A stretch of 64,000 nt of DNA from a virus, in IMG/VR virus record IMGVR_UViG_3300050343_000163, one strand, 5' to 3'. The position numbers and the translations under genes were made by a program. Position 1 is the stretch's first letter. Each line of letters starts with the position of its first letter. The notes beneath the pieces are model-generated. The model was not told where the DNA came from. It did no database searches and worked only from the letters and a program-made list of their open reading frames with translations. This document shows positions 6,150 through 62,772 of this stretch, piece after piece.

Positions 6150-6172
6150 GTGTCTCTGTTGCTGATGTATAC

Positions 6173-6226
6173 ATCATAACAAATAAACAACCTAGCCAAC
6201 CAGTCCGTGTGTCACTTCGTTAACTG
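6173..6226 (-). promoter_or_regulatory. Putative early promoter for cobT-like gene (CAGTT-N4-AAGTG, 29 nt, TATGAT)
   Basis: Minus strand CAGTTAACGAAGTGACACA at 6208-6226, TATGAT at 6173-6178; twin of the 3921-3975 element. Confidence 0.55.
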
Positions 6227-7937: not shown

Positions 7938-8200
7938 TCTGCAGAATCTTCAGGTGGTATCAAAAAATCGTCAGGCGTGATAATGGAAAACTTTTGACCA
8001 CGGTCTTGACATGCTGCTATTATAACATGATCTTCCATTTCCACAACCTGCATTGGAGGATATTCAATGTCCTCCTCCATCATCATCAAGTATCTTGATG
8101 CATCGTCATTATCAATAAAGATAGGTATAACCCTATCCTTTGCCGTGTCAAACACAGAGTATACACCGTCTGGATGATTTTCTAATGTTAGAACAAACAT
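7934..8200 (-). CDS. Conserved hypothetical protein (DUF3110-like)
   Basis: MFVL...G.YS...IF...DDASRY pattern recalled from cyanobacterial DUF3110; between gp47 and gp46. Confidence 0.55.
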   Translation of the reverse strand: MFVLTLENHPDGVYSVFDTAKDRVIPIFIDNDDASRYLMMMEEDIEYPPMQVVEMEDHVIIAACQDRGQKFSIITPDDFLIPPEDSAE

Positions 8201-9240: not shown

Positions 9241-9463
9241 CTTTAATAAATTCTCCTTTTTCGTAATCAAATCTAGGATGTGGGGCAGACGGCACCCAAG
9301 GGTTTTTTGATGTGTTGTGTATAACAATAAACTTATCAGCAGCAAATGTACCTGCAATACTGACTCGAATTTCATCATCATCTTTCCAATTAAATGAACC
9401 ATCTTTTTTAGTATGGTTCATTGCTTCTTGGATCTGGTCAATAACTTCTTGTGTTAGTTTCAT
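9206..9463 (-). CDS. Hypothetical protein, about 85 aa
   Basis: Start reassigned to MKLTQEV; ATGA overlap with the upstream 40-aa ORF. Confidence 0.7.
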   Translation of the reverse strand: MKLTQEVIDQIQEAMNHTKKDGSFNWKDDDEIRVSIAGTFAADKFIVIHNTSKNPWVPSAPHPRFDYEKGEFIKDEDSTNNGSTS

Positions 9464-9582
9464 TGCAAATACTCCACTATCTTTAGTATACCATATGCTG
9501 TAAATACTTGAGGAATTATAAAAGCAACCATTGCTACAATCCAAAAGACATAGTAATAATTTTCTTTATTCTGTGTTCTCAT
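9460..9582 (-). CDS. Small membrane protein, 40 aa
   Basis: Hand translation MRTQNKENYYYVFWIVAMVAFIIPQVFTAYGILKIVEYLQ; ATGA overlaps at both ends. Confidence 0.7.
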   Translation of the reverse strand: MRTQNKENYYYVFWIVAMVAFIIPQVFTAYGILKIVEYLQ

Positions 9583-9812
9583 TGAGGGGAATGATCTTTA
9601 AACTTATCATGGTTGCCATCACCTGGCATTTTACCAAAAGCAATATATTCAACAGCTTGTAGAGAACCTTCCAGTCTAGTCAAGTCTCTCTCAATTTTAA
9701 TGTATTCATCATACGCTTCTTGTAGTAATTCTTTTTTCTCAGTTAACTGAGCAGTTCTCTTTGTGAAACGCTCAATTAATTGTTCATTGTTTTCTACAGG
9801 TTTAATTTTCAT
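9579..9812 (-). CDS. Small coiled-coil protein, 77 aa
   Basis: Heptad-like L/E/K-rich sequence within a tight gene string. Confidence 0.7.
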   Translation of the reverse strand: MKIKPVENNEQLIERFTKRTAQLTEKKELLQEAYDEYIKIERDLTRLEGSLQAVEYIAFGKMPGDGNHDKFKDHSPQ

Positions 9813-9969
9813 TGTATCTAATTGTTAGTGATTGCAAAAATTCTCCCGTTGGTTTAGAAACTTTCCAAGTTGAATCTTTCGATGCAAAGGATAGTTTACA
9901 ACGTATCTTGTTTGATGAGAGACGAATCATTCTCACCATAGCTAGATTACGTTCCAATTCATTGAGCAT
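9802..9969 (-). CDS. Hypothetical basic protein, 55 aa
   Basis: Hand translation MLNELERNLAMVRMIRLSSNKIRCKL...; fills the gap with 11-nt overlaps. Confidence 0.55.
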   Translation of the reverse strand: MLNELERNLAMVRMIRLSSNKIRCKLSFASKDSTWKVSKPTGEFLQSLTIRYNEN

Positions 9970-10108
9970 CTTCTTGTGTTTTATTGTATACTATAATTCG
10001 ATTGCCATCATGTGTAAACATGAGTTCATCATCATGACCCCAACAAAGTTCTTCGTAAAGATCATTAAGTTTTTCCATGTCATCATATAAGGTGTTGGGG
10101 TTTGGCAT
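9959..10108 (-). CDS. Hypothetical acidic protein, 49 aa
   Basis: Hand translation MPNPNTLYDDMEKLNDLYEELCWGHDDEL...; TAATG overlap with the gp55 stop. Confidence 0.7.
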   Translation of the reverse strand: MPNPNTLYDDMEKLNDLYEELCWGHDDELMFTHDGNRIIVYNKTQEDAQ

Positions 10109-10614
10109 TATCGATTCATTTTAGTTTCAATGTTTTCTTTGATGCTACCCATGTCAGAATAAGAAGCATTCATACCAGACATACTACCATCATATGTGTC
10201 TGTGTGCATGACTTCATCATATCCTGACCGTTCTAGGATCTTACCTTTGATCTCTAGCTGCTTCTTTTCTTTTTGGATCCTACGCAAGAATGCATAGTAA
10301 ATGATCTGAGTAAAATAAGCGAATGGGTTCTTAGATTTTTCAGGGTCAAAGTTGTCAATATACTGGAGGCAATTTTCAATGCCGTCACAGATCATGTCCT
10401 CACGGAACATGTAGTTAACAAAGTTAGGTTTATAAGATAGGTGTGTTGCGATCTTTAAAAAGCAAGAACCAATATAATTGGTAACTCGTGGGCGAGGTTT
10501 GCCTGTTTCTTTAGCAGCATGAACGTTTTGCCGAAAGTCAGTGATCGCAGCAAGGAACTCTTTATTATTGACGTAGTATTCTGTCTTTTTTCGGGTCATT
10601 ACTGCATATGCCAT
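10108..10614 (-). CDS. gp55: Late-transcription sigma factor
   Basis: YYVNNKEF, KIATHLSYKPNFVNYMFREDMICDGIENC, NPFAYFTQI. Confidence 0.97.
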   Translation of the reverse strand: MAYAVMTRKKTEYYVNNKEFLAAITDFRQNVHAAKETGKPRPRVTNYIGSCFLKIATHLSYKPNFVNYMFREDMICDGIENCLQYIDNFDPEKSKNPFAYFTQIIYYAFLRRIQKEKKQLEIKGKILERSGYDEVMHTDTYDGSMSGMNASYSDMGSIKENIETKMNR

Positions 10615-10639
10615 GGTTTGTTACCATTATCATGTACTA

Positions 10640-10668
10640 AGGATAGCACAATGAATTGGATTTGTAAA
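10640..10668 (-). promoter_or_regulatory. Sigma70-type promoter for gp55
   Basis: TTTACA (10663-10668), N17, TATCCT (10640-10645) with extended -10 TG. Confidence 0.65.
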
Positions 10669-10674
10669 GGGGGC

Positions 10675-10703
10675 TTGACAGAACCTCATAAACTGAGTAC
10701 AAT
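10675..10703 (+). promoter_or_regulatory. Near-consensus sigma70 promoter, antisense orientation
   Basis: TTGACA (10675-10680), N17, TACAAT (10698-10703); points against the minus-strand genes. Confidence 0.65.
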
Positions 10704-10731
10704 TAACCTTGTAGAGGTTCAGGTCAAGGTA

Positions 10732-11130
10732 TTAGCTTTTATTAAAGATATCTTCTAAAGACTTTTTCATTTCTTTTACTGATCCTAGATATCCAGAATC
10801 ACGAGTTAATTTCCCTGCTCTTCCAGTTAGACTCTTTCCATTTTCTAACCTCTCTAAAGTTTTTTCGTAGAAGTCTTGAATCATGGGATCAATTTCAGTC
10901 ATAGTCATGATATGATCACGCTTAATAATAAACATGTTATCAAACGAGGCGCTGATCCATTCACTAAAAGAAAAACCAGATACTTCTAATTGACCTTTCT
11001 TTTGTTTTGCAGCTAGAACTTGGAGAGGGTTTTCTAATAATACTTTGTCTTCATCTTCTAAGTAGCAGACTTTAGATACTATCTCCTCTCCAGTTGTTAA
11101 TTTTATTGTTGCATAGAATTCTTCTTCCAT
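10732..11130 (-). CDS. Conserved hypothetical protein between uvsW and gp55
   Basis: 132-aa ORF, YATIKLTTGEEIVSKV N-terminus, conserved position in T4-like cyanophages. Confidence 0.8.
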   Translation of the reverse strand: MEEEFYATIKLTTGEEIVSKVCYLEDEDKVLLENPLQVLAAKQKKGQLEVSGFSFSEWISASFDNMFIIKRDHIMTMTEIDPMIQDFYEKTLERLENGKSLTGRAGKLTRDSGYLGSVKEMKKSLEDIFNKS

Positions 11131-28083: not shown

Positions 28084-28880
28084 AATATCTGAATCCCTTC
28101 ATTAAATCCAAAGTCATCACCAGAGTCTAACAATGCAGTATCTGCTGCATCAATATTACCATCAGTATTAATATCTGTTTTGGCAACTGGTGTATATGTT
28201 CGTGTAATTGCTCTACGATTAACTGCAGCATCACCAAGTGTTTCATGAATGATTGCTTTCTTAATAACGTCAGCAGTATTGTAAGGACCGTACAGATAAG
28301 ACTTCATTGTAAAGTTGAGAGTATAGATGATATATCTACGCTCATAAAAACTGTCATCCCATTCATCTTCGTAGCTAACATTGTTCAGAACAATAGCAAT
28401 ATCTCTTTTCTCATCCATATCAGGAATCATATTGAGAGTTATAGAAAATGATGGTTGAAAGTATGGTAAGATTTGTTCAGTAATTTGTAATGCATCATCT
28501 TGAGATTTTGCCATTACTCCTAATTCAAAACTTAAATTATAAGGAACAGGCACATACTGCACTCTTACTTCACCACCATTACCATCAATGATAGTTTTGT
28601 ATTTTTGAATTGGAGATGTCTTACGAGTTGAATCATAGTCAATACTAGTCATCTCAAAATACAATCTTGGTAAAGTGATTGCTACTTTTCTATTAGATGC
28701 GTTCTCTTCTAGTCTAACAATAAACTTTTGTTTAGGACCATATGCCAATGGTACTTTTAATTCTTCTAAAACAGAACCATCGCTAGGATCTGTACTCTTC
28801 ATAGTAATATTATTGAAGAGCGTACCAAACGCTACAATGTTCTTGCGAACAATTTGATTATAAAAATGTGATCCTAACAT
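28080..28880 (-). CDS. gp15: Tail sheath stabiliser / tail terminator
   Basis: FGTLFN, VPLAYGPKQKF, PVPYNL, EQILPYFQP. Confidence 0.95.
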   Translation of the reverse strand: MLGSHFYNQIVRKNIVAFGTLFNNITMKSTDPSDGSVLEELKVPLAYGPKQKFIVRLEENASNRKVAITLPRLYFEMTSIDYDSTRKTSPIQKYKTIIDGNGGEVRVQYVPVPYNLSFELGVMAKSQDDALQITEQILPYFQPSFSITLNMIPDMDEKRDIAIVLNNVSYEDEWDDSFYERRYIIYTLNFTMKSYLYGPYNTADVIKKAIIHETLGDAAVNRRAITRTYTPVAKTDINTDGNIDAADTALLDSGDDFGFNEGIQIL

Positions 28881-30004
28881 TAGATACTACCTGTAAAATT
28901 ACCAAATTCACCAAATGGGTTTCCTTCACTCCAATCTACGATATTGTCAGCATCATTTTCGATCTGTCTATTTTGATCGTAGTTGCTGTTGACGTTATTT
29001 AGAGTGTCGAAAGTTTCTGGACTCCACTTAGCACCTGAAGTTAAACCAGTGATTACTTCAGCAGTGGTGAATGTTCCAGTTCTATTGATGACTGACAGAG
29101 CTCTGGTTGTGCTATCCCAAGACTTGACTTCTGCTCTATTGTCTTTAGGTGAGTAATCAATAGTAATAGTAGGAGCGGAGGTATAACCACTACCTGCACT
29201 AGTGATAGTAATACCATTGACGATACCAGTGCTACTAACTGTTGCAGTCGCTGTTGCACCTGTACCTCCTCCTCCAGTGATAGTTACTGATGGTGGCGTA
29301 GCAACTTTGTAATGTGCTCCACCATCTGAAATTGTAATACTTGTTACAGCATCTCCTGTGATAGCAGATGTTGCTTTTGCTAAGAACTCATCACCAACAA
29401 CTTCCTCACCTACTGTGAAGTCTCCTGAACCACCAGGATCCATTACCAGTTTGATTGCATTGTCAAAGAGTTGTTCTATTGCATCAATCTCAGTAATTCC
29501 AGTATCAAAGTCATCACTACCAACCTCATAGATCTCAGCAGTGATAGCATAGAATTGGATCTTACCAAATTGGAAGAATGGTTCTTCCTTACCAACAAAT
29601 TTAATTTCGTAAATGTCTTGTGTTAATGGGAAGTACAGTAAGTCCCCTTCATTAGGTCTAGAACTTACTGTGAGATTGGGATTATGATCTGCTACCTCTT
29701 CATCCCAACGTCTTGTAGACACACGGAAGATAATTTCGTCTGTAATTCTTAAACCGAACTTGGAGATGAACTCAGAGTTGTCACCAAAACCCATGACGTT
29801 CTGTAACAACATCTCAATTTGGAATTGTTCTTGATACTTAGTGTATCTAACTTCATCCAGAGTGCTGTCTTGTAGAACTATCTTGGGGATATAGTAAATA
29901 TCTGTACCAAACAGTTTGATTTGCTCATCCACAAGATCCTGAACGAGACCTTGTTCGCCACTGTGACCTTGATAGTATGTTGGAAAATAGGAACTGGTAG
30001 GCAT
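28880..30004 (-). CDS. gp14: Neck protein
   Basis: EQIKLFGTDIYYIP, SKFGL, PNEGDLLYFP, FFQFGK, NPFG. Confidence 0.94.
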   Translation of the reverse strand: MPTSSYFPTYYQGHSGEQGLVQDLVDEQIKLFGTDIYYIPKIVLQDSTLDEVRYTKYQEQFQIEMLLQNVMGFGDNSEFISKFGLRITDEIIFRVSTRRWDEEVADHNPNLTVSSRPNEGDLLYFPLTQDIYEIKFVGKEEPFFQFGKIQFYAITAEIYEVGSDDFDTGITEIDAIEQLFDNAIKLVMDPGGSGDFTVGEEVVGDEFLAKATSAITGDAVTSITISDGGAHYKVATPPSVTITGGGGTGATATATVSSTGIVNGITITSAGSGYTSAPTITIDYSPKDNRAEVKSWDSTTRALSVINRTGTFTTAEVITGLTSGAKWSPETFDTLNNVNSNYDQNRQIENDADNIVDWSEGNPFGEFGNFTGSI

Positions 30005-30846: not shown

Positions 30847-31077
30847 TTAGGAAGGTTCGATGCTTGCAGGTGATGCTTCAGTAGGAGGTTCTGTAGGTTC
30901 TTCCTGTCCCTCTCCAGAAAGTAATCCAATAGTCTCTAGACCACCTTCTAGTTTAATTTTATATTCTTTTGCTTTCGCTAAGTTTGTTTCCAGTTCGCCA
31001 ATTTGCTTTACAGTAGTAGCAATTTGTTCTTCAAAATTCTTTTTGAGTTGTTCGGGATCCATGGTCATTATTATCAA
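30847..31077 (-). CDS. Small coiled-coil protein, 76 aa
   Basis: Heptad pattern; own late box GATAAATA at 31096-31103. Confidence 0.7.
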   Translation of the reverse strand: MIIMTMDPEQLKKNFEEQIATTVKQIGELETNLAKAKEYKIKLEGGLETIGLLSGEGQEEPTEPPTEASPASIEPS

Positions 31078-31101
31078 ATATGATATTGTATACTGTATTT
31101 A

Positions 31102-31743
31102 TCATGTTGGAGAAACCCTATATGAATACTTATCATCAACAATTAATGAAGGCATGAAATTCATAGAGATAGAAACTCTACCATCTTTTCTGTTATCAGA
31201 ATAACCATGGGTAAGATTAGATTGCCATAGCATCACCTCTCCTTCAGAAGGGTGCATGATAACATCACAGTTATATTTCCCTAGCTTATTCATGTCTGGT
31301 AGCAATGAAATTGATGGTGCTTGTGAATGAGTAGAACCATCTGGATGTCTGAAAAATAATGGTGCATGTCCTTCTTCATGACAAACATAATATGTTCCAG
31401 ATATAAATGCATTAGTATGAAAATGTGGATACTGACTTCCACCAGTATCACATAAATTTAACCAGCTATCAGTAATAATCATTCTCTCAGGAAGATCATA
31501 TCCCAAATCATCAGCAACAAAAGAAGTACATTGATCTTCTAACCACTGTTTAAATTCTGACATTTCTTTTCTGTGTAGAAATGATCTACCAGATGTATTG
31601 TCGTAATGATGTAGGTTGTTATCCATTGCATTAGTGATCATATTTTCACCTGTCATCATGTCGATAATTTCTTTCTTTACAACATCACTATTTGGGTAAA
31701 GTTCTCTACCAATAACTTTAGGAAAAATATCAATTAAATTCAT
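31102..31743 (-). CDS. 2OG-Fe(II) oxygenase-like protein
   Basis: DSWLN, PHFHTNAFISGTYY, LWQSNLTHG, RVSISMN; TAATG overlap with the upstream stop. Confidence 0.85.
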   Translation of the reverse strand: MNLIDIFPKVIGRELYPNSDVVKKEIIDMMTGENMITNAMDNNLHHYDNTSGRSFLHRKEMSEFKQWLEDQCTSFVADDLGYDLPERMIITDSWLNLCDTGGSQYPHFHTNAFISGTYYVCHEEGHAPLFFRHPDGSTHSQAPSISLLPDMNKLGKYNCDVIMHPSEGEVMLWQSNLTHGYSDNRKDGRVSISMNFMPSLIVDDKYSYRVSPT

Positions 31744-33437
31744 TATTTTTTTAATACAAAAATGTTTATTCCATTCCACCAAGAATTTGTATCTTCAATT
31801 TCACCAGTAAGAATACTTCTTTCATACAAAACTGTAATCTTATTCTCTTCAATAAAATCTTTTGTCGATGTCAATACACCATCAAGGTTTGCATCATCAA
31901 CCACTAATATAAATTCATTCTCTGTATATTGAAGAATGTGATTTAAACAACTTCTCTGTACATTCAATTCATGATCTGCGTCATAAAAAATAGTATTTAC
32001 TTTTTTATCTAAATTTTCTTCTGTAGCTTCACGGATATCACCATTTAAAATTGCAATGTTGCTGTTGTCTGTCCATACAGATTTTACATTCTCAATGAAA
32101 GTTTCAATAGATCCTTCTTCATCATCCCATGGAATGTCTTCTCTGATTGGTTTGATATCTACATCACGCCAATGATCTGCTGCATAAGCAGTAATATCAT
32201 TACCTTGAATTGCTGCACAGAATGTGCTGCCATTAAACACACCAATTTCTAGATACTTTGTATCCTCGTAAGAACATAGATTGTTGAGGAAGTGCCTTAC
32301 CTTATCAGAAGTTAGACCCTGAATGTCGTGATCAAATTTTGACTTCCCTTCAATAGCTTTATCAATAGAGTCTAAACATCTGGTTACAAATGGGTGACAT
32401 ACTCTCTCTTGTTTTTTAAGATGTGCTTCAACAACTGTATCGCAATAATTACATTCCCAGCAATCAAATTTACAATTTTTAATTTTATCTCTCCATATAT
32501 CAATGGGACGATCTTTCATATTAAGATCTTCCATGTATACATTCATACGTGGGAAGAGAATTTCATCACCATCATTCCATTTTTTAATGATGTCCATAGA
32601 CTCCATTAATCTGATAGCACTTTCTCTACCATGCATTTTAAATACATCAATACCTAGATCAAGAAACTCTTGCCAGTCTTCTCTCCATGGCGGAATGTTT
32701 GCTGCTTTAAGAGATGCTGATGATTCTGTTACATCCCAAGTAGAACAAGATACTCTACTGATTTCAGAATTAAAATATTGAGGACTATCATCTCTTGTGG
32801 CATTGTATTGATAATGCTCTGGCATAATAGGACAACCACCCCAGCAATTTTCATTAGCTAGCAATGATAGTTTTACTGGTTTATCAATAGATGCACAATA
32901 TTCTTTTGCTTCGATAACTCTATTGAGAGCATCTTTATCTCTCATTAAATCTCTATCAAGATTTACATAGTGAAATCCTGCTCTAGCACAAGCAACAATT
33001 TCATTTGCTTTTGTGACTTCTCTAAGGATTGTGTTTTTGATAAACAGTTCAGGAAATTCTCTTTGAATTTGTCCTGAAGAAACCCATGATGTATGAGGTA
33101 GAGTTACAATACGAACACCCTTATCATACAAAGGTTTAAAATTTTCTATCCACAGATCTAGATTTTTTTGATCTGGTCTAATCCACATGTTATTAAATGT
33201 GGCAGACAAAGGAATACCTGTCTCTTGAGAAATAAACAATGCATTTCTTGTAGTTCCACTAACAGGATCAACTACAAAAATATCACCCATCGCATCCTGA
33301 TTAAAAGGAGGAATACGACAGGTAAAATATAGATCGTAAATTAAATGTTTATGCTCAATGAGGAATGGTATAAAAGTCTCCTCAGCAAATTTTTTATTGA
33401 TCTTCGGGTTGATCGGCAGACTGAAGACGCTTGTCAT
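31743..33437 (-). CDS. U32-family (Fe-S) domain fused to a class I SAM methyltransferase
   Basis: N-terminal ANENCWGGCP, SC, GIDVFKMHGRE, CKFDCWECNYC; C-terminal YLEIGVFNGST, IFYDADH, VVDDAN. Confidence 0.75.
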   Translation of the reverse strand: MTSVFSLPINPKINKKFAEETFIPFLIEHKHLIYDLYFTCRIPPFNQDAMGDIFVVDPVSGTTRNALFISQETGIPLSATFNNMWIRPDQKNLDLWIENFKPLYDKGVRIVTLPHTSWVSSGQIQREFPELFIKNTILREVTKANEIVACARAGFHYVNLDRDLMRDKDALNRVIEAKEYCASIDKPVKLSLLANENCWGGCPIMPEHYQYNATRDDSPQYFNSEISRVSCSTWDVTESSASLKAANIPPWREDWQEFLDLGIDVFKMHGRESAIRLMESMDIIKKWNDGDEILFPRMNVYMEDLNMKDRPIDIWRDKIKNCKFDCWECNYCDTVVEAHLKKQERVCHPFVTRCLDSIDKAIEGKSKFDHDIQGLTSDKVRHFLNNLCSYEDTKYLEIGVFNGSTFCAAIQGNDITAYAADHWRDVDIKPIREDIPWDDEEGSIETFIENVKSVWTDNSNIAILNGDIREATEENLDKKVNTIFYDADHELNVQRSCLNHILQYTENEFILVVDDANLDGVLTSTKDFIEENKITVLYERSILTGEIEDTNSWWNGINIFVLKK

Positions 33438-34170
33438 TGAGTTGGTCACGGATTTGATCTAGGAGAGGGATGTTAAGGTTGTGTTCTACACCATGGAATG
33501 TAGGAACTTGAACGTCAGGAGATTCTGCATATGCTTGAAAATACTTCTCTGTTCTTCCTTGAATCTTATCCATAGAGATCTTCATCAAACAAGCATACTG
33601 AGATGCAACATCAAGAATACCAACTTGATCTTCTTCTTTCATCATAGCAATAGAATCCATGTTGCCAATACCGACTCTACCATTTGCCATAATATCTAAA
33701 GCAGCTTGTTTACCAAGTCTTGCAATCCAATACTTTCTTTCATCTTCTTCATCCCATTCAACTGAATCCAATAGATCTTGTTTTGTTAGACCTTTGTCTT
33801 TAATATAATCTATGAAAACTTGAAGTTCATATTCTGCTTGACCCTTTCTTCTATTCCACATTTCTTTATCGAGTTCAGCAAACTCAACTTCAGCTGCAGC
33901 AAATTCAATATCAAACTCATCTCCATCTTCTGCTTGGAGTTTCTCTAGTAAAGCTTTATCACGACGCAAACGAATATCTCCCTTCTTTTCATCGAGGAGC
34001 ATTTTTTCATATTGATGTGATCGATTCTCGATCTCTAACAAAACTTGTTTTAGTTGTCGATCTTCTGTGACATGTGATTTGATCACATAGTCTAAAATTT
34101 GATTCTTCGACATACCAAGAGATACTCTTACAGCAATATCTCTAATTTCTTTATCTGTAATTACACCCAT
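33394..34170 (-). CDS. Coiled-coil hypothetical protein, 258 aa
   Basis: All-alpha charged sequence with a conserved-looking YWIARLGKQAALD segment. Confidence 0.8.
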   Translation of the reverse strand: MGVITDKEIRDIAVRVSLGMSKNQILDYVIKSHVTEDRQLKQVLLEIENRSHQYEKMLLDEKKGDIRLRRDKALLEKLQAEDGDEFDIEFAAAEVEFAELDKEMWNRRKGQAEYELQVFIDYIKDKGLTKQDLLDSVEWDEEDERKYWIARLGKQAALDIMANGRVGIGNMDSIAMMKEEDQVGILDVASQYACLMKISMDKIQGRTEKYFQAYAESPDVQVPTFHGVEHNLNIPLLDQIRDQLNDKRLQSADQPEDQ

Positions 34171-34190
34171 AATAAATCAAAAAATAATGA

Positions 34191-34955
34191 TTAGAACTTG
34201 ATACCAGGAATTACCTCATCTCTAATTAAAACACCCTGTTCGTTTTGGGTGTATTTATTTTCTTCTTTTGCCTGTTGTTCTGGCATTGGAAGACCAAGGT
34301 AGTTCTCATATAACCTATTTATCTTCCTAATTGTATCGCAATCTGAGAACTCTTTTTTAATTTCTGAAGACTTAATGTAGAGTGCTTTTACATTTCTGTT
34401 GTAAGCATTTCTTTTTTCTTGAATTTTTGTTTTTAAATCAACTGGAGCTACACCCTTTGCTACTGACAATTCTCTGATGATGTAATCATTATTATTATCT
34501 ACATCGTCATTTTGATATTCCCATGTCTTTTTCTCTAGTGCAGAAACACCTTCGTCTAAAGCTAAGAACCTTTGTTCAAAAGTTTGTTCTACAATTAACT
34601 TTGCTAGGAACTTCATAGTTCTTAGAATAGTATCATATCTCTTTTGTGTGACAGGAACTGCTACTTTAGGTCCTTCAGGTGCCATATCAGCATAAGATAG
34701 ATTATCAAAATCTGCCTCATTTTTTAAATCATCAGCAGGAACTTTAATGGTAGAACGAATATCACCAAGACTTCTCATACCAAATACTGCCATCTCTTTA
34801 TCCATCTCGACAAATCTGTCTGATAAAGAATTTATACCATTTACGTCTTCAGAATCCAACGAGAAAACATACCAATCAAGAACAGAGTTGATTGGTTGGT
34901 ATGTAAGTAATTTTGTTAGATCGGGGAGTTTACCAACGAAATATCTTTTTGTCAT
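34191..34955 (-). CDS. Putative tail-fibre assembly chaperone-like protein
   Basis: EKKTWEYQ...ELSVAKGVAPVDLKTKIQEKRNAY resembles the W..Q...L..A.G...L..KI..K...Y fibre-assembly pattern; directly downstream of a fibre-like gene. Confidence 0.5.
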   Translation of the reverse strand: MTKRYFVGKLPDLTKLLTYQPINSVLDWYVFSLDSEDVNGINSLSDRFVEMDKEMAVFGMRSLGDIRSTIKVPADDLKNEADFDNLSYADMAPEGPKVAVPVTQKRYDTILRTMKFLAKLIVEQTFEQRFLALDEGVSALEKKTWEYQNDDVDNNNDYIIRELSVAKGVAPVDLKTKIQEKRNAYNRNVKALYIKSSEIKKEFSDCDTIRKINRLYENYLGLPMPEQQAKEENKYTQNEQGVLIRDEVIPGIKF

Positions 34956-34957
34956 GC

Positions 34958-36103
34958 TTATACTCCTGTGTAACCGCTAGCTAGTGTACCATATTCAATA
35001 GCAGCACCCGATGCTCTACCAGGTGTTCCCTGAGAGTTGAGACTGCCATTTAATCCAAATGAGTGTGTGGAGAAACTTACTTGACCACCAGTATTGTTCT
35101 GACCACCATCATACATACCGTTCATAAATCCATGTGTCATTCCCGTATGGAATGTTTCTTCACCAGTAGTTGCTGGTTTACTAACAGATCCTAGGTTAGA
35201 ACCAGTAGTGTCATCTCTTCTTGAAAGTGCAGCGTTGGTTTGGTAACCACCTGCAGTGTTCCAATAAGAGAAATTAAGACGTGAGTTCCAAGTCTTGTTA
35301 GTTCCATCAGTGCCAGGAGCAGAACTCCAACCAGACCACGATTGAGTTGACCAGTCAAAGCTGTATCCATTACCACCTTGCTTATACCAACCTTTAGTTT
35401 CGCCATAACCACATGCAGGGTTATCACCACCAGTAGATCCGCCGCCACTAACAGTTGATACACTGTCATTAGTTAAGTCGTATCTGTCTGGGTTGTTGTT
35501 ATTGTTTCCACAAACATATGCATACTTAAAGTCTCTCTTCATAACAGAAGTTCTGTTTCTTGAAGTCTGCATCGATGTTGCAGCACCAGCATTGGACTCA
35601 GTGACCATGCTGAAACTAGAAACATAGTTACCAGTATTGTTCCAACCGTTTGCTGTGCAGAAAACATATGCTCTCATAGCAGAGTTTTGAGCACCTGCTG
35701 TGTATGCGTCAGACTGATCAATTCTGTCGCCAATGTTAGCGTTACTAAACGTAGCATGTGTACAACGGTTGATGTTTCTCCATGCAGCACCACCTCGGTA
35801 ACCTGCTGCTGGATATCCTCTAGTAATATTAAAACCTTCGGCAAACTCAACAATGTTTTCCCAATAAGCGTTAGTACCATCTGATTTCAGTGTGGCTCCA
35901 ACGGTGCTTGAATCACCAGCACTTGCAGGAAATTGCTCTGGTAAAGTTGAAAATGGCGCACCATTTACAAGCAAACTATTACTGCCAATATCAATATTAC
36001 CACCGAAGGTACATGAACCATCCGTATTCAACGAAATGTTGGGATTGGTTGAACTACCTGCGGCGGTATATTTAAGTTGATCTACTCTTAATTCTGATGC
36101 CAT
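34958..36103 (-). CDS. Putative fibre-tip / receptor-binding protein with propeller-like repeats
   Basis: MASELRVDQL N-terminus, GATLKSDGTNAYW linker, about six G/S/T/N/aromatic-rich repeats of about 40 aa. Confidence 0.55.
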   Translation of the reverse strand: MASELRVDQLKYTAAGSSTNPNISLNTDGSCTFGGNIDIGSNSLLVNGAPFSTLPEQFPASAGDSSTVGATLKSDGTNAYWENIVEFAEGFNITRGYPAAGYRGGAAWRNINRCTHATFSNANIGDRIDQSDAYTAGAQNSAMRAYVFCTANGWNNTGNYVSSFSMVTESNAGAATSMQTSRNRTSVMKRDFKYAYVCGNNNNNPDRYDLTNDSVSTVSGGGSTGGDNPACGYGETKGWYKQGGNGYSFDWSTQSWSGWSSAPGTDGTNKTWNSRLNFSYWNTAGGYQTNAALSRRDDTTGSNLGSVSKPATTGEETFHTGMTHGFMNGMYDGGQNNTGGQVSFSTHSFGLNGSLNSQGTPGRASGAAIEYGTLASGYTGV

Positions 36104-36128
36104 GGATAATAGGATCTCCTACCTTTAC

Positions 36129-36134
36129 TATTTA
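36129..36134 (-). promoter_or_regulatory. Late promoter core (TAAATA) heading the accessory cassette
   Basis: CTAAATA overlapping the stop of the 3492-aa gene. Confidence 0.6.
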
Positions 36135-39100
36135 GACGATGTTCCAGCTACCGCCATCAGCAACTGTGATCACAATATTGTTATTTATAGTGATAGGACC
36201 AAAACTACCACAGTTTGTTCCATTAGGAACAGTAATGTTCTCAGCAACAACTTGACTGTTTGCTTTGAAGATACCGTAGGAGTCGATCCATTGCCTTACG
36301 CCGTTAGCGTAAAGAACGCTGGTGTTTGCTTGGTTAACGAAAGTTTGACCTTCGATGTTTGTAGATCCAAGGACATGTAAGTCGTATGTAGGATCTTGTT
36401 TCTTAACACCAACTTTGGACAATCTATAGATGTCATTGCCGTTAGAAGCTTCTGTCCATCTAGATGTTACAAACTCTTGGTTGTTCTGGAAGAACTGACC
36501 ATTCAAGTTAATATCACCTTGAACATTTAATTGATAGTTTCTACTCTGGTTATTAGTTGGGTCGGTTCCAGAAGTTGCATTAGTGTTAATTGCAATTCTA
36601 TTGTCACCCTTAACCAAGAATGCAGGAGTTCCATTCCAAGATTGTCCACCACCAGCAGTTGATGCAGTAATTTCAAATGCATCACTATGTCCAATCTGGT
36701 TACCAATTCTGAAGTTTTTCTGACTGGAGGAACCTAAGAAGTACATACCAGCACCAGAGTTATCATTAGCGGAATCTAACGTAACATAATTTCTAAATCT
36801 GGATGTACCATTAACATCTAACTTAAAGCTAGAACTTGGAGTTGAAGTTGAAATACCAACTGATCCATTATAATCAATGGTCATTGCCTCAGTTCCAACA
36901 GTTAGTGGAACCTCGTTACCACTTCTGCCAGGATCAACCATGAACGCAATGCGTCCATAAGAAGACCAAAGTGCCATTCTCTCACTGCCTCTATGGTCAT
37001 AAAGTAGACCACCTCTTACAGTATCGTTATAAGTGAGTGCAAGACCAAACTGAGAATCAGCACCACTAGAACCATCTACCCAGTTACCATTAAACTGAGC
37101 AATGTCCATTCCATGAACAGTACCATAACTGTTAAAGTTAGAAGGTCTAATTCTCAACTTAACGTATGACTCACCAGCACGGTTAGTAAATACAGTCTCG
37201 CCAATACCGATCTTATTCTCAGAAGAGTCAACGAATAATGTATAGTTATCAACGTTAAGATCAGCAGTTAATGTTGTTGTATTGTTAACAGTTGCTGTTC
37301 CACTAACAGTGAGGTTAGAACCTGCACCAGTTAGGACAAGCGAACCAGTCATGGTATCACCAGTCTTCAGAACGTTGAGTGATGCAGCACCAGTTAGAGA
37401 TGCGGTAATTGTTCCAGCGGAGAAGTTACCAGCAGAATCACGTTGTACTGCATAACTACCAAGGTTAGCACTACTAAATTGAATGTTACCTTCGTTCCAT
37501 GCTTTCTGACCATTGATAGTAAATGCATCAGCATTTAGAACTGTCAATGCTAAAGTACCAGATCCTAAACTAGCATTACCACCAGCTGCTTCAAATTTAG
37601 CAGTATAGTGATCATCTGGAGTTGCCGATACTAACTGAGAAGATCTAAAGTAAATTGCAGGACTAGATGATTGACCATCAGTTCTTCCAAGTCTTAGTTC
37701 ACCAGATCCAGAGTTATTAACAATCTTACCAACGTCTACTGTATTACCATCTTCTAGAGTAAAGTCATCAAATGGTTGTCTGTTAGATGCACTACCAGCA
37801 GTAAGAGCACCAACAAAGTTACCAGAGTTGAGTCTACCAATTAGAATCGTAAAGTCGTTAAAGTTATCTGCTGTATCATCGTTAGTTACAACACTATCAA
37901 TAACAAAACTACCAACAGCTTGTGCGTTGGCGTTATACAAGTTGATTGGATTACCTGCAGCAAATACTCCCGTTGCAGATGTGTCGAGGATAACTCCAGA
38001 GAAGTAAATTCTGAACTTAGGATCACCAAGGAATCCTTTAACACTTACGTTATCTCTAAAGTTAGTTGCACTAATGAATCTAGGAAGTCTATTATCAGAT
38101 AAAGTTCCTTCATTAATGTTTAGAGCATTTTGATACCAAGTGCCCTGTCTATTGTCAAGTCTGTCAGCGTCAAGACCAGAGTCAAGACCATCATTCAATG
38201 ATGTCCATACCTTCGCCCATGTACCGAAAGATCCAACACCAGTTCCAGATCCACGGAGATACATGTTATCATTATCCGTGAATGCAAGTTGTCTTACACC
38301 ACCAAATCCAGCATCGAAACCAGAACCACCATTTCTGAAGGTTACAGTCATGTTTCTGGTGCCACCATCAGTTAGTCCATTAGCACTATTGAAGATTGTG
38401 TTAGCAACAATACCAGAACTGAAGTTGTTAGGAGCAGGAGAAGAGGACGGGTTGTTAGTACCTGTAAGAACACGAATCGTGTTACCTGCTGTACCAGAAA
38501 TTGCGATGTTGTAAGTTCCAGCTAATCTATCAGAAGATAGAGTACCAGCACTCATGTTACTAGCATTTAGATAGAATGTACCTTGTACACCGTCTAGTAA
38601 GTCAGCATCAAGTCCACTATCTGCACCAGTCTTAAGTTCAACAGATCCATTTCCTGCCTGACCAAGATTGAATTGTGATTTCTTATATCTAGAAACACCA
38701 ATTGTACCGTAAAGGTCAGCAGAAATTGTAAGATCAGTAACTCTCTGAACGTCAATAGATACGTTTGCATACTGTCTGTTGACCGTAGAAACTTTTGATT
38801 CTAGTACAAGAGAGGATCCAGCACCAATGACACCAGGAGCAGAGGTTACAGTAAAGTCTGAACTATATCCAGTACCACCATCAGTAACAGTAATTTCTGT
38901 TACAACGTTACCAGCAACAACAATATTAACCTTGAGTCCAGTTCCTGTTCCACCTGTTAGCGAAACATCAAAGTATTGACCGTTGGTGTAACCAGAACCA
39001 GCGTTAGAAATAATAACATCATCAACAAATCCACCTTGAGTGAATGTTGATTCAAATGATAGAGGAGATGCACCACGCTCAAACTCAATAATTGTTCCGA

Positions 39101-42100
39101 GAGGAATTGTTGCATTGACTGGGTTGTTTAGAGAGATCGTAGTTAGACCTGCTGCGGTAATAACACCAGTAATGTTTGTATTAGTCTGAATACCACTTAC
39201 AGTATTCTTAACTTCATGACCAATAAGAACATCAGAGTTTGTAGTAAAGATCATCTGAGATGATCCTGTAGTACACTGAGATGCCAATCTTGCAAAGTAC
39301 CTGCTTTCTGCACCTTTGAGTGACTGCATTGCTAGTGCAAAGCTAGAATCACCTCTTAAGAATGTGAAGGAGTTTGCAGATCCACCAACAGCAAGTCTGT
39401 CTGTTTCAATAACACCAGATGTAATATCGGAAGCAGCAATCTGATTGGAAGATAGTGATACCCAGTTGTTAGCATCGAAGGAAGATGTATTTACAACTCT
39501 AGTAATGTTAACTGTATTAGCAGTAGGTGATGTACTATCATCAACAGTATCAGTATCTTCTATCTTAATGTTGTTGACGATATCACCATATATTCTGCTC
39601 TCAATTAGAGCATTACCTTGTGCTTGTGTACCAGCTCCAGTAGGAGCAGCAAATGTAATATTAGGAGCAGTAGTATATCCTTTACCACCTCGGAATCCAC
39701 CAAAGTCATTAATAGTAACAGTAACAACTTGACCATTAGCAATAGTACAAGTAGCAGCTGCAGAAACTGCACCAGCTTCTGGGTTACCACCAGCAAATGT
39801 AACTACAGGAGCAACAGTATATCCAGAACCACCGTTACTAATATTAATTTGGAATACAACACCTTTTCTATATTCAGTTGATTGAATGCGTCCAGTAGTT
39901 AAACTACCAGTAAGGATGTCACCGATGGTGAATGTTAAAGCAGGATCTGGGTTAAATCCAAGGAACAGACTATCATTATCATTGTTTAGAATGAATGATG
40001 TTGATGTATCCTGTTGAATTGCAATGTCACCAGCAAGTGCTCCTTCTAGTGCAGTTCTTTCTGTTTGGTTTGCAACAGTGAAGACACTGAATGGTCTGAG
40101 TGCTGGAATCTGATCAATAGAGATCTTACCAGAATCAGTAAGTTCAACCAATGCTCTAGGAACAGCGTTCGTAGAATATGGTTTGTTGATGTAAGGTCCT
40201 AAAGCATTAGTGATATAATCTTTAACTGCCTTTTGTGTAGGTAGTTTAGAATCACTAGAGTTAGCACCACCAAGTGTGTTGGATGCGTCAAAACCAGTAA
40301 CAACAACGTCACCACCTTTCAGTTTCAAGAATTCAACTTCAGAGATCGTAACCGTACCAGTGAAGGTAATGTTACCAGTTCTGTTTTCGATTCTAGCGAA
40401 AGTACCAACCTTAAAGTCACCAAGTTCATCAGTACCAGAAACATATACACGACCGTAGTTTTCAGATACCTGTTCGTATGCTTCGACTTTAGTACCACCG
40501 TTCTCAGGAAGAGCTAGGTAGTTAGTTCCTGAACCCGCAAATTCCCACGTATGAGAAGAAGAGTTAACAATCGATGGTCTGTGTAAGTTAATTGTTTTAC
40601 CAGACAGAATACTGGTAGATACTGCCTGACCAGTTGCTATATCTGTAAGATCCATGGCACCACCTGTGCCATCATCAATAGTTAATTGTGCAGAGAAAGG
40701 AGGACCAACTGTAACTCCAGCTACAACATCAACAAAGTATTCAATATCTACATTAGTGTTTCTATATCCATCAATCTTAACAACATAATGCTCTAATGGT
40801 TCTCTACCAAGTCCACTAAGTGTTAGGATAGTTCTACCAGTAGGAGTAGAAGAAACATTTGAAATCGTTGCAATATCAAATGCATATGGGTCCTTACGGA
40901 AACCTATACCTCTTAATGCAAATGTACCAAAGTTGGTAGCAGAGTTAGTGATTGAGCAGTAACCACCAGATTCAGCAAGAACACCATCAGCACAGAAGAT
41001 AACGAAGACAGAAACTAACTGAGTATAACCATCGTTGATAACCTTATATCCTGTACCACCAAAAGATACAATCGTGAATGCAGATGCAACCATCGACTTA
41101 CCCTGATTGGGGAAGGATGCTGTTCCGTCTAACTCAAGACCAGGGAATGGGCAGTTGGGTTGTTTAACCTTGGCACCATCAACCTCAGCACCGCCACCAC
41201 CTAGGAAGGAGATAACAGATGCGTTCTGGGTGTATGGAGATGCCTCGATAATTGGATAGTCATCGTAATCACCACGAATTGCTAGTCTGTTGTTATTAGC
41301 ATCAGAAACAAAGTTATCTGGATACGAAATAATTTGTGAAGTATCATATAGAGAATTGCTAGTTCTAGATGTAGCACCAGAAAGAACTGTTCCATCTAAG
41401 ATATCTTCAAAAAGATCCATAGATGTATTGATGGAAGAAGCAACGTTAGAACATTGTGAAGTTTGTCCCGTGCTGTATACAAGTACAGAGTTGTTAGTTG
41501 TTCTAACAAATGTATGTGCAGATTGTGGTAAATGCTTGAGGCAATTAGTTGCAGCAGTTACGAATGTATGTGCAGATTGTGAAATCTGAGTAATTGATCC
41601 TGCAGCACCACTTACAAAAGTATGTGCTTCACCAGAAGCAGCACCACCAGCTCCTACGTTAACTGTAACAGTTCCAGTTTGTCTCTCGATACCATTAGCT
41701 AATGCACTTACAAAAGCATGTGTGCCTGTGTAAGAGGAAAGACCAGTATTAATTTCAAAAGTATCGGTAGTTACATTACTAATTTGTACCCATTTGTTAC
41801 TCAACTTATCATAGTTGGCACGAGGATATGTTTTGTTTACTGAATTTCCATCCAGATCACAAGTAAAAGTTAGACTATCGTTAGCAATTTTTACATAATC
41901 TCCATTTGCAAAATTATGTCCAGCACTTGTTATAACTAACTTTCCACTAGATGCTGTGTAGACAGCATTGGTAGCTGTATGTTGACTAGAAGAAACTGCT
42001 GTGATATTTAAAGATGCACCTGAAGCGGGGTCAGATGGTCTTGGATATGTTTCTACAGTTGTATTACCATCACCATTATAGTCACATGTAAATGCTAGAG

Positions 42101-45100
42101 AATTATCTAGAATTACAATTCCTTTATTAACATCAAGACCATGCTGAGTTCCAAGTTCTAGAACTAATTCACCAGTAGATGCATTGTAGGTAGTTCCTGT
42201 TTGTGCAGTAAGTAATTTATTTGCAGGAGATACACCTACGTTTAATGTAATAGTTGTATCACTTACACTATCGATAGGTATAGATCTCAATGCGTATGGG
42301 TCATGACCTGCTCTTGGATATGTTTTAGTAGCAGTATTTCCATCCATCGTACATGTGAACGATAGACTATCAGTATCAAGTACAACACCTTCACCAATAC
42401 TAAGTCCATGACCAGTACCAATAGTTAGAACCAGAGCACCTGTAGCAGGATCATAAGTTGCATCACTTGGAGTCCACTGTTGATCAGGACCAGATACGCC
42501 AACATTAATTGTAAATGTATCTGCAGATGTTGATGTTACTGCCAGAGCATTGCCATATGCAGTTTGACCAGATTGAGGTAAACTATGCTCAGTGGCATTA
42601 CCGTCCATTGCACATGTAAATGTGAATGATTCTGGAGAAAGACTAATACTATTACTTGTAGTAACACTATGACCTGTCACAGTCATTGTGAAATCACCAT
42701 TAGCAGGATTATAGGTAGCTGTTGATGGTGTATGCTGTGCTATTGGAGCGCCTGCATTTGGATCTGGAAGAATATTCCAATCTTCAAATCTTGGAATAGG
42801 TGAAGTTAGTACAGTAGGATTGTAAACAATAATAGTTCCATCTGTTACTGCACTTACAAATGAATGTGATGAACCAGAAGCAGCTCCTGCATTACCAACG
42901 TTACAAGTAACTGTGGTGACACCACCAGAAGATTGAACATTAGTGATGGCATGACTCTTGCCATAATTATCATCAGTTTTTAATGGACTTGAGTGTGTTC
43001 CAGTAACACTGTTATATGTACATTGGAAGGCAATTGCTTCTTCTTTAAATGCAATTCTATCTCCTACATTAGGAGCAATGAGAGGATCAGGGAAGATTAC
43101 CTCTAATGCACCAGTAGAAGCATTGTATGTTGCGTTAGTTGGAGTGAGATCAACATATGATCCATCAGTCCAGTTACGCATTGCTGCGATAGCATATGTT
43201 TTAGCTCTTTGATATGCAAAGATAGTTTCTGCTCTTTGTGCTTCTGGAATACCAGTTAAAGCAGTTTGTGTAAAGTAAGATTCGGCAGCTATAACAATAT
43301 TCTCATTACCACCAAATGTTAAATCTTTTGCTAGATTACTTAGCGTAATACCAAGATCTCTTTTACATTTTCTTTCGTTTGTGTTATCAAGTGAGAATAA
43401 TGGGAACTGACCTAATGTATCACGTAATGCTTGATCAGCAATTAGATACTTATTCCTTTCAATTAAGTATGCAGCATCCAGATAAGTTCCATTTTGATTC
43501 TTGGTAATAAGATCAACCCAAAGGAATGATAAAGTATCAATTGCAGATTTAACATCAGCACAAGCTGGAGTACCCGCAGTTGCTGTGATGACTGTATCAT
43601 CAAAGTATCTTGTTACAGAAGAATATACAGGAGAATAAATTGGATCTGATGGAGTACCGTCACCAGTTCTCCAGTTTCTCATTGCAAGGATACAAAGTTC
43701 TCGTGCATATTCAATCGCACGGAAGTTTTGAACAATTTCATCCTTGATGTATGCAATATCACCACCAAGAATATACTTCTTAGCTGCTTCAATAATGTTG
43801 AAGTTTGAACCAAATTCTAAATCTCTTACTAGAGCATTAACAAAGTGAATAACGTCTTGGCGGCATTGCTCATCACCGTCACTTCCTGTGTTATCTCCAC
43901 TAGTTGGGGAACTATAAGAAGGGTAAGTTTTTTGACCAGCATCACAGGATAGTAGAATGTCTGCTAACTTAATGGTATCATCTTCTACTAAAGTTGATAA
44001 AGCAGAATCTACTGTGATAGTTGCATAACCTGTTATGATATTATCGTAACTAAAGTTAGTAATATTTACAGTTGTATTTTCAAATTTAACTGTACCACCA
44101 GAAACATAAGTATGAGTTACTGGAGTCTGACCTAAGAATACTTTAAATGTATCTCCACCACCAGTGATTTCAGATACCTGATAATAGTCTTTAGCAAATT
44201 GTCTATTGATTCTTCCTACAACTTCATCTGCAATAAACTCTCTGTTATTACGTAGGAATACACAAGCATCTTGGAATCTTCTTTCTACAGGAGTAGATAG
44301 AGGGAATGTGTTTGGTGAGTTTAGTAGTGATAGAGTAATTACTTTTGAAAAACTCTTAACAGTTGCAAATTGACCAGGATCTAAGTTAGCATCTGTGATA
44401 GATGGAACTTTTTTAGGAATTACAAATCTTCTGCAGCGACCATCTGCATCTTCTAAGACTTTATAAATTCTTTGCTTACCATTTAGAAGTGATAAGTCAG
44501 GGTTTGAAGTAGGAAGATTTTCAATTAAAATTTCCTGACCTTCTTTAAACTCGTGAGTATTTGTTCTACCAACTAGTGCGTTAGTATAGAAGACAACACC
44601 ACCAAGATCTTCTGCATTACCAAACTGAGCATTTTGGAAACCACCTGTTGTAATACTTGGATCTCCTTGTAAAGAGAAATCAAGTCTAGAAATAGGTAGA
44701 GTTGTGGTGTAATCTTCATCTACTGCTACAACCTCACCTTCTGCTCGAATTGATTTAATAGCAGTAGTGTCAATATTTTCAGTTTGTGCAGTAGCTTGAT
44801 TGATTGCATATGTACCACCAACACCAGTTGCATCCCATGTGGGAGCATTTAGAATTGGGAAGAATGTTACATCCCAAATATTACTTGCAGATTGCGTAGA
44901 ATCAATCGCAGAAACTTCATAGAATCCTGTAAAAGCATTACCTGTGGATGGTGTTCCTACTAATTGTACTACTGTACCACCAGGAATAGTTCCAGTTGGA
45001 TCTTGTGTAAATCGTAAAGTGTTTGGTCCCTGTTGACCAGTAATAGCAAGGTTGATAGCACTACCTGCACCAGCAGATGTGATATATGAGAATTGCTCAC

Positions 45101-62747: not shown

Positions 62748-62772
62748 TATTTATATTTATAGCAATATTTAT
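62748..62772 (-). promoter_or_regulatory. Cluster of late promoter boxes upstream of gp8
   Basis: TATAAATA at 62748-62755 and 62754-62761, ATAAATA at 62766-62772. Confidence 0.75.

Follow-up and report, generated by a model that had tools for sequence, protein, structure and literature searches.

The IMG/VR record IMGVR_UViG_3300050343_000163 gives 64,000 nucleotides (nt) of a T4-like cyanomyovirus, and this whole stretch is here called the window. Between a giant tail-fibre gene and gp13 the window carries a cassette of four genes, which code for a protein of 381 amino acids (aa) with a predicted Kelch-type propeller, two proteins of 254 and 258 aa, and a 568-aa fusion of a barrel remotely related to the U32 hydroxylases with a putative methyltransferase. 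Comparison of related loci supports the idea that these four genes are one inherited unit that moves between genome positions. As to its function, we tentatively propose that the fusion adds a methoxy group to an aromatic side chain in either the propeller or the fibre, thereby tailoring the fibre tip, a possibility that we place first among those considered and still hold short of probable. The four genes and the two domains of the fusion are located in the window as follows.

34958-36103, minus strand: 381-aa Kelch-type propeller protein (phrog_1417), fold predicted by AlphaFold2 and VIA-align
34191-34955, minus strand: 254-aa protein of no known family (phrog_1604), between the propeller gene and the 258-aa gene
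33394-34170, minus strand: 258-aa helical protein (phrog_1409), its 3' end overlapping the start of the fusion gene
31743-33449, minus strand: 568-aa fusion, whole gene (phrog_1458)
32370-33449, minus strand: N-terminal domain of the fusion (residues 1 to about 350-360), predicted U32-like TIM (triosephosphate isomerase) barrel, from AlphaFold2, VIA and hhalign
31743-32369, minus strand: C-terminal domain of the fusion (residues about 361-568), predicted class I S-adenosylmethionine (SAM) methyltransferase, from Pfam Methyltransf_24 at residues 400-519

Co-inheritance was examined in 80 related viral contigs, on each of which the window proteins were mapped, and 43 loci had enough upstream DNA. 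The 258-aa gene lies directly before the fusion gene in 40 of the 43, the propeller gene is found in order in 39, and the partners are present in every one; in the three remaining loci an insert of 4-6 kilobases (kb) separates the 258-aa gene from the fusion gene, and neither has been lost. Among isolates, one set of 123 cyanophage records, identically divided by organism name, holds both the fusion and the 258-aa gene, and 117 records hold the propeller. About a quarter of the sequenced cyanomyovirus records carry the fusion, and metagenome proteins include more than 2000 homologues of it. Although invariably amid fibre genes, the block is found in three or more genome contexts: beside gp13 (the window and S-CAM4), far from gp13 (S-RIM2/S-RIM12) and before denV (Syn19/P-SSM4). 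Compared with the window, the fusion has a median identity of 58%, the propeller of 42%, the 258-aa protein of 38% and the 254-aa protein of 30%, a pattern of divergence that fits a conserved enzyme plus fast-evolving tip proteins. The 254-aa gene is too divergent for tblastn (23 records), yet its position is constant in related loci. The overlapping reading frames of the 258-aa gene and the fusion gene are conserved in relatives, and on sequence grounds we regard the first as translationally coupled to the second. A reading made earlier from the sequence alone (the sequence-only reading) had taken six genes as one inherited host-range module; the co-occurrence check upholds the joint inheritance for the four genes listed above and not for the remaining two, a 2-oxoglutarate (2OG)-Fe(II) oxygenase and a 76-aa gene, which are described below.

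The N-terminal domain of the fusion folds as a (beta/alpha)8 barrel in the AlphaFold2 model. Seven cysteines (C202, C206, C235, C326, C330, C333 and C336) are invariant across 54 diverse homologues and both subfamilies; they sit in two loops of low model confidence, and their spacing (C-x3-C, a lone C, then C-x3-C-x2-C-x2-C) is unlike the U32 signature. The domain probably binds iron-sulfur clusters. Foldseek on the entire 568-aa model gave generic methyltransferase and TIM-barrel matches only, and the U32 structure surfaced in an exhaustive VIA search, where the best structural match to residues 4-281 was the U32 protein Mk0906 (5d88_A; Z 14.4, root-mean-square deviation (rmsd) 4.1, 222 aa), to our knowledge the only solved U32 catalytic domain.

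Sequence comparison points to the same relation. When the 54 family members were aligned by hhalign with UbiU, UbiV, TrhP and RlhA of E. coli, 256 columns were colinear with an E value of 5e-4. The score was 36.6; none of 30 block-shuffled controls scored above 21.7, and reversing the alignment gave 16.4. Two motifs correspond, L-D-R-D-L falling on L-S-R-E-L and K-M-H-G-R on K-I-E-G-R, and the strand-end cysteines of the domain align within one residue of the U32 cysteines. Comparison by hhalign with single E. coli U32 sequences was uninformative, and a family profile of the domain retrieved no U32 chain among PDB sequences. As the Pfam U32 model misses both the barrel and its relatives, the domain should not be filed as a Pfam U32 member; from fold and alignment together we read it as a very divergent U32 relative with the same fold and probably with a cofactor of the same kind.

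The C-terminal domain matches Methyltransf_24 (PF13578) at residues 400-519 with 29.5 bits, against a cut-off of 26.3, and its structural matches are the O-methyltransferases MeT1, 8c9v, SpnH, Rv0187 and TrmR (VIA Z 14.8-15.8), the last with Z of 14.8 and 13.8; there was no sequence-level match in the PDB. Seven residues are invariant (E401, G403, G407, D490, D518, D519 and N521), and by resemblance of motifs, not by residue-level structural alignment, these may form a glycine-rich SAM site and the Asp/Asp/Asn metal site of cation-dependent O-methyltransferases. Profile and model thus identify the domain as a putative class I SAM methyltransferase of the O-methyltransferase type. The label of U32/methyltransferase fusion in the sequence-only reading is confirmed by Pfam in its second half and holds in its first half only as remote homology. 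In the annotations of S-RIM2 (NC_020859) and S-CAM4 the fusion starts about 50 codons late (8157 and 8160, in the numbering of the extracted loci); in the stretches 8001-9722 and 8001-9743, homology, the conserved F-S-L-P start of the barrel included, sets in near 8001 and overlaps the preceding gene.

AlphaFold2 modelled the 381-aa protein with a predicted local distance difference test (pLDDT) score of 82 and a predicted template modelling (pTM) score of 0.75. Residues 89-374 form a six-bladed Kelch-type beta-propeller, which VIA-align matched to KLHL17 (6hrl_B; Z 29.4, rmsd 2.6, 273 of 287 aa) and Foldseek to Keap1 (template modelling score 0.82, E 1.6e-13), with KLHL12 also among the best matches, so that the propeller-like character guessed from the sequence is recovered in the model. 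No Pfam Kelch repeat was matched at E values up to 10, the sole match being CelD_N at chance level, and the propeller appears to be related to Kelch in fold only. The model is poor in the N-terminal module, some 88 aa long, and this module is swapped among homologues, which fall into size classes of 376-390, about 460 and 650-700 aa; such modules recur in other phage families of the fibre region, some with motifs common in fibre proteins. We consider the 381-aa protein a candidate fibre-tip or adaptor protein, and its reading as a putative virion protein is based indirectly on its position after the tail-fibre gene, its late P-HM2 homologue and its modular N-termini.

The 254-aa and 258-aa proteins matched nothing in Pfam (E up to 10) or among PDB sequences, whether as single sequences or as profiles, and a search of the ESM Atlas returned unnamed viral clusters only; the labels 'assembly-chaperone-like' and 'coiled-coil', which they had been given from the sequence, found no support in these tools. 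Across the two fusion domains, the propeller and the partners, the same Pfam and PDB sequence searches gave only Methyltransf_24, with PF13759 for the oxygenase. The 258-aa protein has no conserved cysteines and is not homologous to the partners of U32 proteins. Paralogy of the 254-aa and 258-aa proteins was considered and rejected (hhalign probability 5%).

The U32-like domain also occurs as a stand-alone protein, and its genes adjoin tail-fibre-type genes in two further phage lineages. The Ralstonia jumbo phage RP31 codes for a 346-aa U32-like protein, open reading frame (ORF) 136, and directly upstream lies ORF137, clearly homologous to the 258-aa protein (hhalign probability 99.0, E 2.8e-18; phrog_1409, E 9.5e-67). 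The order there is a collagen-repeat fibre-type gene, the 292-aa propeller-like ORF139, a small gene, the 258-aa homologue and the U32-like gene. ORF139 is called a propeller because it has the same length, 292 aa, as a Kelch-like RP12 protein that a BFVD structure search brought up, and sequence support for the call is weak (E 0.012). The small ORF138 was tried as a homologue of the 254-aa protein and rejected.

The stand-alone branch was sampled in 80 further viral contigs, some longer than 300 kb, in which the U32-like protein has 400-450 aa and the same seven cysteines. One to three Gly_rich_2 genes (tail fibre by PHROG) lie just upstream in 57 of these contigs, an intervening gene of about 135 aa (phrog_1787) is found in 62, and a tryptophan-halogenase-like gene is adjacent downstream (0-600 nt) in 54; an example of the run is 4864-10825 of the contig that we label L093. 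Nine contigs have instead three GT9 glycosyltransferase-like genes upstream and a PF13640 2OG oxygenase downstream. The Gly_rich_2 and 135-aa genes were rejected as homologues of the cyanophage propeller or partners, and as the neighbours in this branch show no homology to the cyanophage partners, the lineages have the arrangement in common and not the genes. Three contigs of 11-16 kb, assigned to metagenome-assembled genomes of Pelagibacterales, Nitrososphaerales and Chloroflexota, have the run of three GT9 genes, U32-like gene and 2OG oxygenase in common with the viral contigs, and judging from this gene content they are probably misbinned phage contigs.

Contexts of the U32-like family in cellular genomes are mixed, with tandem paralogues in Syntrophaceae and three paralogues on the Dehalogenimonas sp. 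chromosome CP139473.1. One of these three stands beside a radical-SAM enzyme that binds B12 and carries a PqqD/RRE domain for peptide recognition, and the third beside a xylose-isomerase-like TIM barrel; the second is taken up where the proposal is weighed.

Expression data are available for the homologues of the cassette genes in P-HM2, PHM2_098-101, and the timing is thus that of a homologous phage and not of the window's own phage. In the time course of P-HM2 on Prochlorococcus MED4, PHM2_098 is classed as Late (E) and PHM2_099, 100 and 101 as Late (D); the fibre gene PHM2_096, homologue of the giant fibre gene, is also Late (E), and the auxiliary metabolic genes are all of the middle class (PMC5082946, S2 Table). 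The sequence-only reading had placed the cassette in a late, virion-assembly transcript, and the four homologues agree with it alongside the fibre gene; because PHM2_098-101 all fall in the late class, the early expression that it had named as evidence to the contrary was not found. The promoter-like boxes and the genes that flank the cassette are these.

36132-46610, minus strand: giant tail-fibre gene, 3492 aa (phrog_5342 tail fibre protein, 5000 bits), context outside the cassette
36182-36189, minus strand: late-promoter-like box TATAAATA (T4-type), 79 nt 5' of the first ATG of the 381-aa gene
34316-34322 and 34252-34258, minus strand: two extra ATAAATA boxes within the 254-aa gene, 82-146 nt 5' of the 258-aa gene
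31102-31782 (ORF) or 31102-31743 (from the likelier ATG), minus strand: 2OG-Fe(II) oxygenase (PF13759, phrog_81)
30847-31077, minus strand: small 76-aa protein (phrog_580), with its own ATAAATA box at 31096-31102

The TATAAATA box sits inside the 3' end of the fibre gene, just beyond the span that the sequence-only reading had given to the run. A late box is conserved 26-87 nt upstream in close relatives, and in the S-RIM2 homologue a NATAAATA box lies about 31 nt 5' of the annotated start. The suggestion that one late box heads the run is therefore sustained in that the box is kept in relatives, but not in its being the only one, as further boxes precede the 258-aa and 76-aa genes. Boxes of the TATAAATA type are not more frequent in the window than expected by chance (4 observed, 5.1 expected). 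The total of ATAAATA heptamers, whose positions include 11516, 17217, 31096, 34252, 34316, 36182 and 62748-62772, is also below the shuffled expectation (14 against 19.9), though all 14 are on the minus, coding strand, and they look like genuine late-promoter cores and not chance occurrences. Scans for sigma-70 promoters and terminators gave no enrichment within the block.

The region around gp13 is 76-80% identical in DNA to Kyanoviridae phages of Synechococcus (among them Sf-CH1b, ACG-2014i/j, S-CAM4 and S-RSM4). Every gene of the region is on the minus strand, and the order of transcription is the fibre gene, the 381-, 254-, 258- and 568-aa genes, the 2OG oxygenase, the 76-aa gene and then gp13, gp14 and gp15. 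All six ORFs described earlier as one packed run between the giant fibre gene and gp13 are present on this strand. Packing is tight, although the spacing of 2-24 nt then stated is not exact: 28 nt separate the fibre gene from the 381-aa gene, the gaps from the 381-aa to the 254-aa gene and from the 254-aa to the 258-aa gene are 2 nt and 20 nt, the 258-aa and 568-aa genes overlap by 44-56 nt, and the gap between the 2OG and 76-aa genes is about 24-33 nt. For the oxygenase the ATG at 31743 is the likelier start because it yields 213 aa, as in the orthologues, and with this start the fusion and oxygenase genes have a 1-nt stop/start overlap, TAATG.

The identity of the oxygenase, named as such from the sequence, is borne out by Pfam (PF13759, E 3e-15, with 56.8 bits where the cut-off is 27), and H107, H109, N111, H179 and R189, which would supply the iron ligands and the 2OG-binding arginine, are invariant in 13 orthologues; its iron motif reads H-F-H-T-N and has no evident counterpart of the acidic ligand in the usual H-x-D/E. 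The gene lies directly downstream of the fusion gene in only 21 of 71 loci, and elsewhere a related oxygenase is found upstream, inside an insert or nowhere near the fusion. Several oxygenase genes precede gp13 in cyanophages without the cassette too, and genes of this kind are dispersed over cyanophage genomes. We regard the oxygenase, from this distribution, as a putative tailoring enzyme that is optional to the cassette. In every case the 76-aa gene immediately precedes gp13, even in S-RSM4, a phage without the cassette, and by this position it appears to belong to the gp13 neck module and not to the cassette. On the other side of gp13, the C-terminal extension of gp14 (28880-30004; residues about 208-348) matches domains of giant 'virion structural'/fibre proteins, and the PHROG of gp14 (460) matches residues 2216-2331 of the giant fibre; from these reciprocal matches, a repeat domain is common to neck and fibre.

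In the mechanism that we propose, the barrel of the N-terminal domain would bind iron-sulfur clusters and hydroxylate a ring carbon, the fused methyltransferase would cap the new hydroxyl to give a methoxy group, and the 258-aa protein would be an obligate partner or a subunit that presents the substrate. The substrate would most likely be an aromatic side chain in either the propeller encoded alongside or the adjacent fibre, with the result that the virus would decorate its own receptor-binding tip, and the adjacent 2OG oxygenase could act as an optional added tailoring enzyme. A hydroxylation followed by a methylation has the same chemical logic as TrhP with TrmR and UbiU/V with UbiG. We rank protein tailoring first because ring-modifying enzymes (a halogenase and oxygenases) recur beside fibre-tip genes in other lineages, and the PqqD/RRE radical-SAM neighbour of one cellular paralogue, a peptide-modifying type of enzyme, is further support.

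Several observations weigh against this proposal. The U32 relation of the barrel is itself distant: PF01136 (U32) is not matched at E values up to 10 by the 568-aa protein nor by ten distant homologues, the hhalign probability of the relation is just 31%, and TIM barrels of methylenetetrahydrofolate reductase nearly tie with 5d88_A in the structural search (Z 13.7-14.1). All characterised U32 hydroxylases that we know of act on RNA or quinones, and none on protein. Kelch domains are typically protein-binding adaptors, and the propellers may be substrate adaptors instead of fibre tips. S-SM1, S-PM2 and Syn9, the three cyanophages whose virion proteomes were consulted, appear to be without the propeller family and the block. 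Conserved gene order is a weak indication of shared function where a structural region is inherited vertically. Lastly, two neighbours of U32-like genes hint at small-molecule chemistry: in RP31 the U32-like gene is followed, with an 8-nt overlap, by a DUF401/CitMHS-like membrane gene (7016-8056), and the second Dehalogenimonas paralogue is followed by a gene of the 3-deoxy-D-arabino-heptulosonate 7-phosphate (DAHP) synthase family. A DUF401/CitMHS-like gene is unusual in a phage structural region, and it hints at transport of a small molecule.

These two neighbours lead to the first alternative, that a free aromatic metabolite (quinone-like, amino-acid-derived or a pigment) is hydroxylated and O-methylated, which we hold to be unlikely. 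Late expression does not fit it, as auxiliary metabolic genes are of the middle class, and it leaves unexplained a conserved propeller with swappable N-termini; Pfam and PHROG scans found no scaffold-building enzyme (non-ribosomal peptide synthetase, polyketide synthase or prenyltransferase) in or near the cassette. In its favour, besides the transporter-like gene after the RP31 homologue and the DAHP synthase beside the cellular paralogue, UbiU/V and UbiG act on quinone precursors in this sequence, ring hydroxylation before O-methylation, and the synthesis of metabolites by phage dioxygenase/halogenase clusters has been argued for by Iyer et al. 2010 (PMC2938197).

It is also conceivable, and to our minds distinctly unlikely, that the target is a nucleic acid. 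The fusion would then be TrhP and TrmR in one protein, acting at the C5 position of a tRNA, rRNA or phage DNA pyrimidine to convert 5-hydroxyuridine (ho5U) to 5-methoxyuridine (mo5U) or to make a similar change, and the propeller and partners would be specificity factors or mere neighbours. The only characterised U32 hydroxylases with a linked catechol-O-methyltransferase-like enzyme do act on tRNA U34 (PMC6599085), TrmR is among the tied best matches of the C-terminal domain (Z 14.8 and 13.8), and some homologues of the fusion are labelled YrrM-type O-methyltransferase by JGI. Yet the fusion has no RNA-binding extension such as TrhP or RlhA have, it is expected to be expressed late with structural genes, whereas nucleotide and translation functions are usually of the middle class, and the strict linkage to propeller and fibre genes in three lineages would be left unexplained.

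A third alternative denies any common function: the four genes would be neighbours by descent in a conserved structural region, with the enzyme acting independently. We think this improbable. Gene order in the structural region of T4-like phages is generally stable, and in the three loci with 4-6-kb inserts between the 258-aa gene and the fusion neither gene has been lost; against this, the block relocates as a unit, the 258-aa and U32-like genes are adjacent in the unrelated Ralstonia jumbo phage, and the overlap of the 258-aa and fusion frames is conserved. In a variant of the same explanation the U32-like domain would be a protease for glycine-rich fibre proteins, in the manner in which U32 'collagenases' were first described, and glycine-rich or collagen-like fibre genes do neighbour U32-like genes in other lineages. 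Protease activity of U32 proteins is, however, poorly supported in the current literature.

Least credible, and very unlikely, is that the Kelch propeller is an adaptor that brings in a host protein or surface component, for example for a superinfection block or late release, an option for which speak the adaptor role typical of Kelch domains (Keap1 and KLHL12/17 being the best matches), the earlier listing of modification of a host surface and the GT9-type glycosyltransferases of the sister branch, but against which stand N-terminal modules common to other phage proteins of the fibre region, the lack of signal peptides and membrane anchors, and partners with no host homologue detected in the searches run.

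Fibre-tip tailoring by the fusion may also be one case of something wider. It would be that several unrelated phage lineages decorate their fibre tips, with a hitherto unrecognised branch of U32-like iron-sulfur enzymes and a dedicated helical partner hydroxylating aromatic side chains in fibre-tip proteins of propeller type or rich in glycine, and lineage-specific enzymes finishing the product, an extension that we consider doubtful. The proposed finishing enzymes would be the fused O-methyltransferase in the window, and halogenases, 2OG oxygenases and glycosyltransferases elsewhere.

If the tailoring reading is true, there would be a chemical layer of host-range variation beyond amino-acid sequence, a U32-type hydroxylase would have its first protein substrate, and a prediction of host range from sequence alone would miss a layer when the fibre tip is tailored. 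If RNA or a metabolite is the target instead, the cassette would nonetheless be new as a phage-encoded methoxylation system; whether it counts as a new kind of system would depend on its substrate. All four families abound in the ocean and have been listed as hypothetical since 2010, and their folds now give a testable hypothesis, which is strengthened by co-inheritance, late timing and the recurrence near fibre genes in other phages.

The four families themselves have been catalogued before. T4-GC351-354 were listed by Sullivan et al. 2010 under the names 'sericin 1 precursor-like' and hypothetical, neither fold nor function being assigned, and comprise the same four families in the same order in P-HM2 (PHM2_098-101), P-SSM4, Syn19 and Syn33; by sequence the block in the window appears to be a new member of this set. 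The cyanophage dioxygenase/tryptophan-halogenase islands (Syn9 gp41-54) were read by Iyer et al. 2010 as secondary-metabolite pathways and not as fibre tailoring (PMC2938197). They resemble the present locus in that 2OG oxygenases and halogenases are clustered between the fibre and neck genes of cyanomyoviruses, and the 2OG oxygenase of the window is from that pool; they differ in having been described without the propeller or the U32-like/methyltransferase fusion. Our literature search found no paper that ties cyanophages to U32 enzymes.

The closest known system is the yrrM-yrrN-yrrO operon of B. subtilis, which combines the U32 hydroxylases TrhP1/TrhP2 (YrrO/YrrN) with the catechol-O-methyltransferase-like TrmR (YrrM); TrhP (YegQ) and TrmR convert U34 of tRNA to ho5U34 and then to mo5U34 (PMC6599085). 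Both there and in the cyanophage cassette a U32-type hydroxylase is linked to a catechol-O-methyltransferase-like enzyme, which would give a hydroxylation followed by an O-methylation. The cyanophage version differs in that it is a single fused chain, does not match PF01136, has another cysteine pattern and has no RNA-binding extension, and in that its gene is late and lies among fibre genes together with those of a propeller and of two partners that match no known family.

UbiU/UbiV (with UbiT) and RlhA are other O2-independent, prephenate-dependent hydroxylases of the U32 kind. The predicted TIM barrel of the fusion resembles the solved U32 fold of Mk0906 (Z 14.4 to 5d88), and its alignment to the E. 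coli paralogues is colinear, with matching strand-end cysteines and the K-x-H/E-G-R motif; furthermore, UbiU needs its partner UbiV, and the coupled 258-aa gene suggests a similar need in the cyanophage fusion. The fusion differs in that its sequence is only marginally similar (E 5e-4, probability 31%), in that its helical partner is not homologous to theirs and in having seven invariant cysteines where U32 proteins have four.

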